Shown: piece after piece, positions 2,245-62,076 of the stretch | How the letters are laid out: every line of letters begins with the position of its first letter | How positions within the stretch are numbered: position 1 is the stretch's first letter | Source of the DNA: Octopus vulgaris | Taxonomy: Eukaryota | Direction: 5' to 3' | Length of the DNA: 64,000 bases | Assembly (NCBI GenBank): GCA_951406725.2 | Contig: OX597819.1 | Span: 111,538,001 to 111,602,000, forward strand | Program-made: the position numbers and the translations under genes | Notes under the pieces: generated by a model | Databases searched by the model: none | Told to the model about the DNA's origin: nothing | Seen by the model: the letters and a program-made list of their open reading frames with translations, nothing else

Positions 2245-2337
2245 TGCGGCTGAAGAGAGCTTTAACCATCTGTTATGTCGATTATACATTGATGTAAGAA
2301 TAGGTTGTTGTATAAAGCTTGAAACACGTGTACCGCG
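2245..2337 (+). ncRNA. Minimal type-I hammerhead ribozyme, intact core (Penelope pLTR type)
   Basis: TGCGG-CTGAAGA(2250-56)-helix II GAGCTTTA/TAAAGCTT-GAAA(2321-24)-C ACGT G-TA^CCGCG; helix I TGCGG/CCGCG; palindromic ACACGTGT. Confidence 0.8.
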
Positions 2338-2539
2338 GCATCCTTTGTGTTCTGTTTTTTTTTATTTCATTTAATGCATATACCCTCTCACCTCTGCTAC
2401 TAGCTGGCATCTACAGGTGCTTACACTTATCAAGTATTCACCCTGAATTTATGTATGTATGTATGTATGTATGTATGTATGTATGTATGTATGTATGTAT
2501 AGATGTACATATACGTATGTATATATATAAACTTAGATA

Positions 2540-3335
2540 GGTTTCGACCAAAGATTGGACCAGACCATGTCTAACTTAATAGCACCACCTAATGTAAATC
2601 ATTTTGAAGTCAAGATTTGTGTTATCATGGTTCATTCCAGTAGGGAGTTCTGGTTGACGGAGTTGTATCCAGGTATAGGTTGCTTATCTGGTATTCCTTG
2701 AAGAAATTTGTCCAGGTTCCGTTCATAGTTAAGGAGATCCTTTTCCTCTTTGATCTGTTTCGGGGCAATGTTAAATAGGGCAGGGTCTGTTGAGGAAACG
2801 AAATTGTCTTGCAGTGTATTTATGTGCTTTGATCCTGAATTGGGTAGGGGACGTATCGCCCGTGGTCATAGCATTGGATGAATTTTGAAGTTAATATTGA
2901 GGTCGTTTGGACAATGTTAGTGATATATTCTCCACATCGAGCAAATGGTATATCGCTCGCGGTGACGCTGGAGAGAACAGAATTTCAATGCTTTCAGGTG
3001 TCCCAATAATCGAGATCCCTCATGACCTTAAATCTGTCAGTGAAGGACCACTGAGGTGTTTCAATTTTCGAGATGTTTTGTTTTGTATGGGGAGACCACA
3101 GGGACAGCAGTATTTGAGCTGTGGCCGTACAAAGGAGAAACGTGGAATGATGAATACCTTGTCCTCTGGACCGGAAGATTCTCAGGATCCAGGAGCTCCT
3201 CCTACGAACAATATCGACTTTATTGTCGATGTGGGCACTCCAAATGAGACTGTTATCAACAATTGTTTCAAGGTCTCTGATATTATAAGATGATGGGAGA
3301 AGTTAACCTGAAGGAAGAGAGTATGACTGATTTAG
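2540..3335 (-). mobile_element. CR1/L2-group LINE 3' fragment (RT C-terminus), degenerate
   Basis: Minus-strand translation across frameshifts: IRDLETIVDNSLIWSAHI...WILRIFRSR...FVRPQLKYCC.WSPHTKQNISKIE...LDYW..SLQRHRERY. Confidence 0.85.
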
Positions 3336-3361
3336 CATAGTCTTTTTTTCCAAAATGGATC

Positions 3362-3867
3362 AGCTCAAGTTTTCTCTCGTTTAGTTGCATTTTGTTTTTT
3401 TCTTCCCATTGATTCATAGCATGTAGATAACTCACGGATGGTGATTCGACGATTTCCTCTCACTGCTCCATGCACATCTGCGATGTTTTTCTCAGTTCTT
3501 CTGGTTGCGGGTCTCCCAGAACATTCGTCAATATCGACATTTTTCGGCCATCTTGGAAACGTCTGAACCACTCCTACACTTGTGTGCGGCTCATTCACTC
3601 CTCTCCATACACTTTCTGCAACATTTTGTAGGCCTTTGAGCAGGTATTCCCGTGAGAATTTTTTCTGTCATTGTCAGTGCGACGATTACACGCTATACAC
3701 GTTTCTTCCAAGCACTGCTGTAAACGCCGGAAGTGAGCTAGAACGTTAAGTCTTAGTGCGCATGCACAGCAGAGTTTAAGGTCAATCTTTATCAAGCGGC
3801 TTTACTCTGCATGCTTTAGTTTCGTTACTATGACAACAGTCCAGATACTTATTGATCAGAGGTAGTA
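3362..3867 (-). mobile_element. Tc1/mariner fragment: TIR plus N-terminal HTH of transposase, disrupted
   Basis: AYKMLQKVYGEE*MSRTQV*EWFRRFQDGRK..DECSGRPAT..TEKNIADVHGAVRGNRRITIREL; TIR-like end TACTACCTCTGATCAATAAGTATCTGGAC. Confidence 0.85.
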
Positions 3868-4499
3868 TACTTCCTCTAAAAACATTAAAATTATCACAAG
3901 GGTAAAACTACCTCACGTGCTGAATATTGAAAATTTATTTCAGAAAAAGATAAATTTGATCAATATTTTCTTTGATGAATAAAATTAAAGCAGCCATTTT
4001 ATTAAAAGGAACATTTTTTTCTTATAACTACTTACTTTTCGACGGAGTTTTCAAAAATATGTTGCCAATTAAGAGTATCAGATTTAGAAAATACAATAAC
4101 TGTTCCAATGCAAAAATTTAATTATAGATTAGAAAAAGTGAAAATTTGCCAGAAAATAAAAACTAAGAGCTTGCATGAAATTGAGAAACCTACATTTCCA
4201 TATCTAAAATATACTGGAAAACAAACGGGATCATTTTGAACGACATCAACATCTAAAATTCAAAGCATCACCATTTACCGTGAAATCGGTGAGAGAACAA
4301 AGCTTATTAAGTATAGTTTAATATTCATATTTTACATTTAAGGATCATAAACGTCAACTTAAAACCACCTATGTTTTTTTGTTGTTGTTGCTATTGATCT
4401 TTCTACTGTTCATGGTACCATTGTTTATGTTGCTATTTTGTTGTTATTATTCTTGACACTCTTGTTGATGTTACTATTATTCTTTATATCTTTGTTCTT

Positions 4500-58659: not shown

Positions 58660-59077
58660 AATAATAATAATAATAATAATAATAATAATAATAATAATAA
58701 TAATAATAATAATAATAATAATAATAATAATAATGCAAGCAAGTTATTTATATATATAACAATGTAATCCCGTTATTTATATATATATGTGTGTGTGTGT
58801 GTGTGTGTGTGTGTACATACATGTGCACGTGTATATACAAATAACAACTCTCGTAGGAACCCCACGAACGACTCATGAAATCATGATGCAACACAAGGAA
58901 AGAATTAACGGCGATAATGAAGCTATAGCCGATATATATATATATAATTAATAATAATAATATTAGGGAGTAAATCCAAACTTACAGGGAAAAATTAGAT
59001 TTAAGATTAAATCTAATTTTATAGTATAAATATATATATTATATTAAATTATATATATATGCATATAAATATAAGCA

Positions 59078-59482
59078 TTCTTTTACTTGTATAAGCCATT
59101 TGACTACGGCCATGCTGGAGCGCCGCCTTGAGGGGTTTTAGTGGAATAAATAGACCACAGAAATTATTCTTTAAGCCTAGTACTTATCTTTTCCTTTGGT
59201 TGAATCGCTGAGTTAGGGGGATGCAAACAAACCAACACCGATTGCCAAGCGGTGATGAGTGGGGTAACAAACACTGACACAAAGACACACACATACATAC
59301 ACATAAATATATACACACACATATATATATATAAATACGACGGGCTTCTTTCAGTTTTTTCAGTTTCCGCCTACCAAGTTCACTCACGAGGCTTTGGTCG
59401 GCACTAGGCTATTGTAGAAGACACTTTCCTAAGGTGCCATGCGGTTGGGAAGCAAACTTCTTACCAAAAAGCCATGCCTGCA
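59078..59482 (-). mobile_element. SINE family C (further fragment at 59600-59715)
   Basis: Match to 8925-9360. Confidence 0.85.
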
Positions 59483-61384
59483 CATATATATAAAATCATG
59501 TATGTGTGTGTATATATATATAATATATATACACTTACATATATGTACATATATATATACATGGTTATATATATATATATATATATATGTATATGAACAA
59601 CGGACTTCTTTCAGTTTCTGTTTGTCTAGTCCACGGCTTTGGTCGGCCTGGTAGACACATATTCAAAGTGCCAAGCTGTGATATTGAACCCAAGACCACA
59701 TGGTTTGGAAACAAGCTAAAAGCTGCGCTTGTGCTTATATGCGTGATGTATTTAAATAAAGATGTTTGCATTTTTGCGTGTACGAGTGAGCCTGCGAATA
59801 TAGAAATGCTTGAAATTATGTAGTAGTAGTAGTAGTAGTAGTAGTAGTAGTAGTAGTAGTAGTAGTAGTAGTAGTAGGAGGAGGAGGAGGAGGAGGAGGG
59901 GTTGGGAAGGATCTTAGTTAAGATATTCCGTTCAGAATCAGGCAACCCCATTGCGTGGATCTTAATCAAGTGTCTTTTAATAGTAGCCTCGGGTCAACAA
60001 CACATCACCACATCAAATGCACTGACACACACACACACACACAATATATCACATAATGTAGACTGCGTGCAACGGACAAGAATCAGTATATCACACATAA
60101 GATACGATATACTTATAAAACACACAGACGTACACACACACGCACACACACACAAACACAAAAACACACATACACTACACAAATGCACGTATGCACGCAT
60201 ACACTTATACGTACATATACGTATGCATATATATATATATATATATATATATATATATATATATGCATATATATATATATATACATATATATATATGCAT
60301 ATATATATATACATATATATATGCATATATATATATCCACATATATATGTGTGTGCATATATATATGCATATATGTACATATGTATATATATATATATAT
60401 ACATACATATATATACATATATATATATACATATATAAATATATATATATACATTTATATTATATTTTTTGTCTCTAATTTAATATAATATATATATATA
60501 TATATATATATATACGTATATATATACATATATATATACATATATATATATACATATATTTATATATACATATATATATATACATATATTTATATATACA
60601 TATATATATATACATACATAAATATATGTATATATATACATACATATATATACACACTTACATACACACACATACATACATATCATGTATTAGATTTCAA
60701 AATATTTTGCAGAATTTTCAGAAATTGCCACATTCATGAAATTATGGACATTATTGAATACACACACACATAAACACATACACAAACACACGCATATATT
60801 ATACAAATACACCCACATAGATAAATTTCTTAATTTATAGATATATTACCAACAATCATTATATACCTGTACGTATATATATATATATATATATATATAT
60901 ATATATATATTTGTGTGTGTGTGTGTTGCTTGTGTATACATACATACATATATAAATACATACATACATACATGTGCATACACGTACATTCATCACGCAT
61001 ACTCAGGCAGAACTTAGCATGCAGATACGCAGACACTTAACGCCAGTAAAAATCCATTGTTGCAAGTACAGTTTACCGACAAGCAATTTGTCTCACGCTC
61101 CCGTATTTTCTATCCTATGAAGGAACCCCAGCTGCAACATGGCGACACAAAGATCCTTAACTGGCACCAAATACACATCAATGTTCTTTCATGACGTCAC
61201 ACCCACTCTACCTTTCTCGAATGTGTGTGTGTGTGTGTGTGTGTGTGTGTGTTTGTGTGTGCATTTGTGTAGATTACACTTTTGGATATATGCACGTGCA
61301 CGCACTAATATGTACAAGAATATATATATATATATATACATACACCCACACCCACATATATATATATATATATATATATATAGG

Positions 61385-61453
61385 TGAACCTATACGCCAA
61401 CGAAACCGGGAAAATGGTCCTTATGAGCTAAGCATGGCTCAAAGAAGAACAAA
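61385..61453 (+). mobile_element. SINE A' tail-only fragment
   Basis: gaacctatacgccaacgaaaccgggaaaatggtccttatgagc. Confidence 0.7.
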
Positions 61454-61567
61454 CTATATATATATATATACATAAATTTATATTTAATGTAGGATAAAAT
61501 TTTTTAGAAGAAATTTTATTAATGGTCAGCATATTAAAAAATACCTTTAACGGTTAAAATTATAAAT

Positions 61568-62076
61568 AACTTATAAATAAGGGCAAACGGAAAAATTTAT
61601 AATGCCAAATATGCCGAAAAATTGGACATATTGTCCATAACCATATAATTTTTCACAATACGCACGCTACTCGAAAAAAAGCCGACAGAAATTTCTAAAA
61701 AAATCCATTATTACTATATCGGACCGATTTCAGGATTAGTTCGTAAGAACCCTCCCTTTGTCAGTGATAAATGTGGTAAAGAAATAAATGAAATACTTAC
61801 TCATACCCATGGAAGAAGTAAAACACTAAGTTATGAGCACAACTGAGTTGTGCTCATTTATTTCTTTACCACATTTATCACTGACGAAGGGAGGGTTTTT
61901 ACGAACTAACCCTGAAATCGGTCCGATATGGTAATAATGGAATTTTTTAGAAATTTCTGTCGTCTTTTTTCGAGTAGCGTGCGTATTGTGAAAAATTATA
62001 TGGTTTTGGACAATATGTTCAATTTTTCGGCATATTTGGCATAAGAAATCTTTTCGTTTGCCCTAATTAATAAGTT
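61568..62076. repeat. ~510-bp fold-back with ~220-bp arms (Penelope inverted-pLTR-like)
   Basis: 61568-61791 is a close reverse complement of 61854-62076; spacer region has the hairpin atgagcacaact-g-agttgtgctcat. Confidence 0.92.
61876..61928 (+). ncRNA. Minimal hammerhead ribozyme, intact core; the mirror copy on minus at 61717-61769 has G8A
   Basis: TATCA-CTGACGA(61881-87)-AGGG...CCCT-GAAA-TCG-GTC^CGATA; first helix I pair is a C.A mismatch. Confidence 0.6.

Follow-up and report, generated by a model that had tools for sequence, protein, structure and literature searches.

Dispersed, probably Penelope-derived repeats carry type I hammerhead motifs with a palindromic helix III in the genome of Octopus vulgaris

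A 64,000-nucleotide (nt) stretch of the Octopus vulgaris genome, referred to here as the window (positions 111538001-111602000 of contig OX597819.1, in a 2.8-Gb assembly of 227 contigs), is AT-rich and laden with microsatellites, and it raises the question of why several hammerhead ribozyme motifs in unrelated surroundings should each have a self-complementary helix III of a different sequence. An earlier, sequence-only reading of the window had proposed that unrelated hammerhead families converge on such palindromes, and that the palindrome may act as a family-specific dimerisation code. The analysis presented here indicates that these sites are very probably dispersed, mostly truncated noncoding repeats with type I hammerhead motifs, likely derived from the terminal repeats of Penelope retrotransposons and likely moved by a Penelope reverse transcriptase (RT) and endonuclease. 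Convergence is not needed, as the palindrome is a known structural requirement of this form of the ribozyme.

The window was scanned with a descriptor (CUGANGA...GAAA-helix III-UH, helices I and II required to be paired), and 200 block-wise dinucleotide shuffles served as the control. Five strict type I sites with a fully self-complementary helix III were found, compared with a mean of 0.005 in the shuffles, none of which reached five. With one core change allowed there were seven sites, compared with 0.19 in the shuffles. These sites belonged to five families, A through E, with one site each in A, C, and D, and a site on each strand in B and E (Table 1). The type I core CUGANGA...GAAA...UH was present in the five strict sites (A, both arms of B, C, and the right arm of E), and the two additional sites each had a single private change, U4A in D and G8A in the left arm of E. 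Helices I, II, and III paired in the window motifs, with helix I open, and compensatory helix I pairs were found in D and in a sister copy of E. The flanks of the five families were unrelated, the best cross-match being 15 nt with an E-value above 0.2. The sequence-only reading had thus correctly described loci with unrelated flanks that share the hammerhead core and differ in their helix III palindromes, and this observation is confirmed; it had overlooked a fifth family, C.

At the Rfam gathering score no hammerhead site was recovered in the window, the sole match being a tRNA, and in a scan by E-value no hammerhead was among the 150 listed of 412 matches, in which microsatellite matches to microRNA models dominated. 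Because Rfam models recovered none of the window's sites, standard annotation likely undercounts such sites heavily.

Comparison with other copies of each family refined the description of several sites. Helix III in the right arm of family E had been read as AUCGGU, but with this 6-nt register 27 of 30 copies have A facing C in the first pair of helix I. With an 11-nt or 12-nt register that pair is a standard one in 34 of 36 E-type copies, helix I is 6 bp long, and cleavage is predicted after AUA. In the E sister copy this same pair is switched to G-C, and the palindrome is the 12-nt AUUGGAACCAAU. Helix III at this site is therefore most likely the 11-nt AUCGGUCCGAU. The 22-nt core end of family E had 521 exact copies in the genome and none in the control. 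The U4A change that had been pointed out in the family D copy is present, but it is private decay and not a family feature: CAGAUGA was found in the window copy alone, and 24 of the 41 family D rows had CUGAUGA. Family D also showed a compensatory pair in helix I (18 C-G, 14 T-A, and 4 mixed), which represents one subfamily-level event. The family A palindrome was exact in 27 of 37 family rows. In family C the majority helix III was the 9-nt ACCAUUGGU (20 of 35), and the ACCAUGGU of the window copy was a minority form (4 of 35).

The three degenerate relatives proposed for the window fared differently. Two were recognized, one as a decayed member of the ACGU family and one, at 31487, as a site with an intact core; the third, at 1700, was not confirmed, and no relative of it was found among the family and genome loci compared. 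The ACAU of the site at 31487 recurs in its one relative (locus L190), and this site is an exception to the palindromy of helix III.

Table 1. Hammerhead motifs and the repeat copies that carry them, in window coordinates
Feature	Positions	Strand	Helix III (positions)	Predicted cut	Remarks
Family A copy	2040-2449	+			short 5' fold-back; body 5'-truncated; 3' end runs into (ATGT)n
Type I hammerhead A	2245-2337 (core to cut, 2250-2332)	+	ACACGUGU (2324-2331), then A	after 2332	core 2250-2256; helix II base 8 bp plus long extension
Family B left arm	41494-41616	-			inverted partner of right arm
Hammerhead B left	41603-41539	-	ACGUACGU (41547-41540), then A	after 41539	core from 41603
Family B right arm	41623-41824	+
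Hammerhead B right	41636-41702	+	ACGUACGU (41694-41701), then A	after 41702	core 41636
Family C copy	45777-46156	-			part of 456-496-nt tandem unit; inverted piece 46117-46156; (TA)n flanks
Hammerhead C	45982-45925	-	ACCAUGGU (45933-45926), then C	after 45925	core from 45982
Family D copy	51172-51491	+			about one 336-nt tandem unit; (TA)n at end
Hammerhead D	51260-51305	+	AUCGCGAU (51297-51304), then C	after 51305	core 51260; U4A at 51261
Family E left arm	61480-61848	-			decayed hammerhead; core from 61764 with G8A; H17 at 61717
Family E right arm	61853-62084	+	most likely AUCGGUCCGAU (61917-61927)	after 61928	core 61881; ends in (TA)n
Decayed minimal hammerhead	17735-17761	-	ACGU		commonest minimal family (CCGACGA core); A15.1 is G here
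Hammerhead-like site	31487-31514	+	ACAU, non-palindromic		core intact
Doubtful degenerate site, unconfirmed	1700-1727	+	ACGU		C3A; no helix I

All five families were dispersed in the genome. A first look gave 1,286 candidates for A, 244 for B, 2,818 for C, 601 for D, and 3,556 for E, of which 40 per family were scored and the best 30 loci fetched (150 loci in all). Mean pairwise identity around the ribozyme was 0.89 in A, 0.77 in B, which is an old family, 0.90 in C, 0.76 in D, and 0.88 in E. Of 137 copies, 59 had an inverted piece next to the 5' end and 83 had a microsatellite at the 3' end, including 27 of 29 in A and 24 of 29 in D, compared with 15% of random windows. The copies had been selected to span the cut site and the alignments break at low-complexity tracts; 5' and 3' end positions were not used to judge the form of the template. 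Inverted pairs like those of families B and E in the window were also found at many copies elsewhere, and their arms were unequal and 5'-truncated rather than terminal inverted repeats. In the window, the left arm of B has an additional short inversion that wraps a (TA)n tract (41366-41535).

Head-to-tail units without an open reading frame (ORF), with shared junctions, were found in family C (456-496 nt) and family D (336 nt). Units of 438-498 nt in family E were identified from spacing only, and their tandem status is probable. The units of these three families had a GC content of 30-36% and a longest ORF of 45-60 codons. An apparent 445-nt tandem of family B was rejected, being two insertions with a microsatellite between them. 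Longer copies of family A elsewhere extend at least 1.3 kb further upstream, and no ORF was found in them; family A may be a truncated longer element. Long, approximately 70% identical relatives of this upstream region cluster on small contigs (C35 and C36) and near the start of a further contig (C21:8254-8983). No RNA data set was listed as containing positions 45780-46160 of the window. Assembled contigs from four runs, presumed to be of RNA but possibly of DNA, spanned family C, some of them over the predicted cut, and had no piled ends and no back-joint, although contigs cannot show ends or strand. At a separate locus (L183:6018-8300) two very young hammerhead families adjoin, one a 360-nt tandem with a 100% identical repeat, the CCGACGA core, and ACCAUGGU, and the other an inverted pair whose helix III is self-complementary over 12 nt.

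The abundance of such motifs in the whole genome was estimated in two ways. A 1-Mb sample was assembled from 100 evenly spaced 10-kb stretches, with the register chosen blind to helix III, and was compared with 12 shuffles. There were 28 matches compared with 3.4 in the shuffles, and 22 compared with 0.2 when helix III was self-complementary, which extrapolates to 61,000-86,000 in the genome depending on stringency. A loose count of the core only was discarded for its excess background. In a direct count over the whole genome, the class with a canonical core and an 8-nt helix III of the form AC....GU had 58,334 matches compared with 3,192 in the control; 41,025 had a long helix II and 17,309 a short one (reversed-pattern controls 1,650 and 1,542), a few sites being counted under both patterns. 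The ACGU class added 12,642 matches (control 803), counted on the reverse strand alone as the forward strand was inflated by double listing, and with the first two core bases not required. The total is at least approximately 75,000 motifs in 2.8 Gb, or at least 27 per Mb. The long-helix-II AC....GU pattern occurred 7 times in the 1-Mb sample, 14.6 times per Mb in the genome on average, and 4 times in the 64-kb window, so the distribution is uneven, with the window somewhat above the average. The earlier suggestion that hammerhead elements, Penelope-derived or resembling retrozymes, form a dense and diverse set is supported by the excess of self-complementary matches in the sample, by the families, and by the tandem units.

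To place the window families among others, 153 hits from all retrieved sequence were clustered; five of the clusters were the window's own families, which had been fetched on purpose. The majority helix III was self-complementary in 16 of the 16 multi-copy clusters, 14 of them by Watson-Crick pairing, and in 8 of 14 singletons. A short palindromic helix III was the majority form in all five window families. Among the first 100 listed rows of the loop-free AC....GU pattern, the loop was readable in 93, and by hand count 60 of these were Watson-Crick palindromes, 23 were paired with G-U, and 10 were unpaired; the rows all come from the beginning of a single contig rather than from a random draw, and the chance of Watson-Crick pairing is 1 in 16. 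Eleven of the 16 possible Watson-Crick 4-nt loops occurred, and five made up 54 of the 60 Watson-Crick rows. The loops AGCT, GATC, ATAT, AATT, and ACGT were each found on several visibly unrelated helix II sequences. Likewise, palindromes were common to unrelated families in the clustered set: ACGU in two clusters, ACCGGU in three singletons, and ACAAUUGU in two. In families A through E, helix III was predicted to be unstable as a hairpin, at 0.0 to +4.8 kcal/mol, and stable as a homoduplex, at -8.9 to -13.9 kcal/mol, energies that agree with a dimer. The palindromic helix III is most simply explained as inherited from a common Penelope ancestor.

The genome contains intact Penelope-like elements. 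A search for the GIY-YIG endonuclease domain gave 6,136 candidates in the genome, and among the 150 scored there were 148 matches, 16 of them in open frames of 781 amino acids (aa). These 781-aa frames, many of them with the same score, suggest a very recent or ongoing burst of Penelope-like elements. One complete element (L190) has an RT plus, at the C-terminus, a GIY-YIG domain in its 781-aa frame and is flanked by two direct repeats of 299 nt; both carry a U3-A8 hammerhead with ACAUGU as helix III. This hammerhead was found at 13 of 30 GIY-YIG loci. The genome thus likely carries the mobilizing machinery. Endonuclease-bearing Penelope-like elements are usually described with a single ORF. 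A second, upstream open frame, 359-479 aa from stop to stop, was seen in intact RT/GIY-YIG elements (L190:1786-2919, L191:1767-3203, and L182:3405-4481); in the first two it overlaps the start of the 781-aa frame, and no convincing Pfam match was found in the two frames scanned. Tandem repeats rich in ATTGG and TGACGTC-like motifs, which we take to be CCAAT-box-like and cAMP response element (CRE)-like, occur after the stop codon and before the downstream terminal repeat (L190:5330-5940 and L162:1940-2340) and are a possible internal promoter array.

These observations suggest how the palindromes may arise and persist. On read-through of a tandem, helix III would form between two ribozymes on the same strand, so that each of the helix III strands must be self-complementary. 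The paired ribozymes would then cut out a unit-length RNA, possibly circularized, and a Penelope RT would copy it into (TA)n-rich sites, leaving copies that are 5'-truncated, inverted, and partly tandem. Because any palindrome serves, each source lineage would drift to its own through compensatory change, and as the families outnumber the available palindromes, palindrome sequences would be reused. The window copies are predicted to be nearly silent because they are single (A, C, and D) or in divergent inverted pairs (B and E) and have no same-strand partner. Such lone or inverted copies would be nearly inactive and decaying neutrally; core mutations are already present in the D copy and in the left arm of E. 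The need for a partner may also explain the tolerance of so many copies.

Several results weigh against an origin of the window families in Penelope terminal repeats with cleavage as dimers. The 3' microsatellite was less frequent in B (11 of 29), C (13 of 29), and E (8 of 21), in which ends set by alignment breaks are imprecise. No true tandem unit was found in family B, and none in family A, in which a long upstream region is present. Minimum-energy folds of lone window copies did not contain the full hammerhead. Only 1 of 9 predicted Xenopus retrozyme dimers was cleaved in vitro (10.64898/2026.07.22.740005), therefore many such motifs may be inactive. None of the families A through E matched the one autonomous family sampled, that of L190, and no contiguous link of A through E to a Penelope ORF was found in the 150 family loci or in extended 10-kb loci. 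Nine Penelope protein queries had no match in the window at E ≤ 1e-4; the earlier statement that no intact-core copy there is attached to a recognizable RT was correct. ORF pieces near some family copies were on either strand and differed from locus to locus. Penelope pieces near six loci (L038, L048, L117, L123, L126, and L133) were considered as parent ORFs and rejected as independent neighboring insertions because, in the extended loci, they had their own 5' inversion, lay on the opposite strand, or belonged to different ORF families. One long relative of family A had no Penelope ORF within 5.6 kb upstream, in a region broken up by other elements. As neither a match nor an ORF link was found, it is from architecture that we infer the likely parentage of A through E.

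Other explanations for the palindromes were weighed against this one. The palindrome may be a selected family-specific code that prevents cross-activation or poisoning between elements, as the sequence-only reading had suggested. The five window families do have five palindromes, there are 15 distinct majority palindromes in the 16 clusters, and for 110 of 120 cross pairs the predicted pairing falls short of the weaker homoduplex by over 1 kcal/mol. This orthogonality, however, is automatic for any two palindromes that differ, unrelated families share palindromes, a few loops make up most of the Watson-Crick rows, and a partner in a tandem transcript would already be of the same family. Changes at CpG sites within families were also unbiased, with 26 that keep pairing (G-U; C>T) and 25 that break it (G>A), indicating that selection acts on source elements and not on inserted copies. 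Because CpG decay acting on the two strands yields palindrome-keeping double changes (ACGUACGU to AUGUACAU and AUCGCGAU to AUUGCAAU), these were left out of the covariation evidence. Such a code is therefore very improbable. A related idea is that palindromes have become saturated in what is perhaps the densest hammerhead load of any animal, with dozens of families, so that matching copies on the same strand could cut pre-mRNA and the palindrome would work as a compatibility rule. Lone copies would then be harmless, matching same-strand copies, even of unrelated families, would pair within one long pre-mRNA, and the rule would shape the survival of elements in genes and the coexistence of young families. 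We regard this as decidedly unlikely.

That the ribozymes with a longer helix III (C and E) act as monomers, with the palindromy of the loop incidental, is a somewhat better alternative. A 4-bp helix with a 3-nt loop was predicted in E (0.0 kcal/mol) and a 3-bp helix with a 3-nt loop in C (+0.4 kcal/mol), and efficient monomer cleavage is described for most hammerheads of invertebrate retrozymes (PMC7229834; PMC7761336). In every one of the 16 clusters, those of C and E among them, self-complementarity nevertheless extends across the loop, as it also does in the 12-nt variants of E, and the monomers of A, B, and D have only 2 bp, which leaves a monomer role for C and E doubtful. The motifs could also be sites that act at the DNA level, such as palindromic endonuclease or protein-binding sites in repeats resembling miniature inverted-repeat transposable elements (MITEs). 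This would fit the inverted pairs of B and E in the window and at many copies elsewhere, but the catalytic core, the UH triplet, and strand-specific helices tolerant of G-U are kept across unrelated families, helix I has compensatory changes, the arms lack the form of terminal inverted repeats, and the same motif is found in the terminal repeats of the RT-encoding element L190. A DNA-level role is hardly credible on these data, and derivation from Penelope terminal repeats, with helix III pairing between two ribozymes, is preferred.

This reading places the octopus families close to known systems. For the hammerheads of Penelope pseudo-long terminal repeats (pseudo-LTRs), Cervera and de la Pena 2014 (PMC4209133) describe a type I form with a short helix I, a long helix II, and a short palindromic helix III proposed to function as a dimer. 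In that description a genome holds many families that vary, most copies are solitary, pairs on opposite strands lie 100-700 bp apart, and a U3-A8 variant exists, and the octopus motifs are alike in all of these. Penelope-like elements also occur as partial tandems and with 5' inverted copies, and in the Naiad and Chlamys clades their insertion is biased toward microsatellites (10.1101/2021.04.23.441226), and 5' truncation with an adjacent inverted copy, partial tandems, and such a bias were seen here as well. The window families differ in having no linked RT/GIY-YIG ORF, a helix III of 9-12 nt in C and E, and helix II inserts of 26-65 nt. The number of motifs is also larger, at least approximately 75,000 compared with 2,000-9,000 in fluke, coelacanth, and Xenopus (PMC4209133), with different descriptors.

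Non-LTR retrozymes, defined by Cervera and de la Pena 2020 (PMC7229834) and in vertebrates derived from pseudo-LTRs (Li, Clavereau and Pollet 2026, 10.64898/2026.07.22.740005), are likewise ORF-less head-to-tail units with a GC content below 50% and one type I hammerhead each, have many monomer copies, and co-occur with Penelope-like elements. The units found here, at 336-500 nt, are at or above the 150-450 bp given in PMC7229834 and within the 51-972 bp given in 10.64898/2026.07.22.740005. The octopus arrays, in contrast, are short (2-3 units) and often 5'-inverted, and no tandem unit was seen in families A and B. The double hammerheads of newt satellite and avocado sunblotch viroid (Forster 1988, cited in PMC4209133 and PMC6466107) share an unstable monomer helix III that is rescued when the palindromic loops of two ribozymes pair, whereas in octopus the motif resides in the genome, has spread by retrotransposition, and occurs in dozens of sequence families. 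Palindrome-dependent dimer cleavage is restated in PMC6765202, PMC7761336, and PMC6466107, with citation of Lunse et al. 2017. Earlier publications thus already cover the palindromic helix III, cleavage as dimers, and the presence of many variable families in one genome, and this is not a new class.

The only unusual feature of this set of hammerheads is its scale. Approximately 5,000 hammerheads were reported in mussel (PMC7229834), 126,247 in axolotl (PMC7229834), whose genome is 28.21 Gb (10.64898/2026.07.22.740005), both with other descriptors, and 235 Rfam hammerheads in giant squid (PMC6962438). For an octopus, 30 recently active Penelope families were described in a paper whose main text does not contain the words ribozyme or hammerhead (PMC13282606). 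No report of octopus hammerhead abundance or of between-family palindrome specificity was found in a literature search in which subscription papers mostly lay outside the scope. The value of the set is as a resource: natural hammerheads number in the tens of thousands, fall into dozens of families with palindromes of 4-12 nt, and occur together with intact Penelope-like elements. This makes it possible to test the role of the ribozyme in the Penelope cycle, the strictness of dimerization, and the origin of retrozymes from pseudo-LTRs outside vertebrates.

Other features of the window were minor. The tRNA-like match at 57018-57089 on the forward strand was barely over the Rfam gathering score (32.2 bits) and has several broken pairs. 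Three fragments on the forward strand (46441-46860, 54721-55529, and approximately 58010-58400) resemble proteins of non-LTR retrotransposons, and are presumably an L1/Tx1-like C-terminus, a zinc-knuckle ORF1, and a Dong/R4-like end, respectively.

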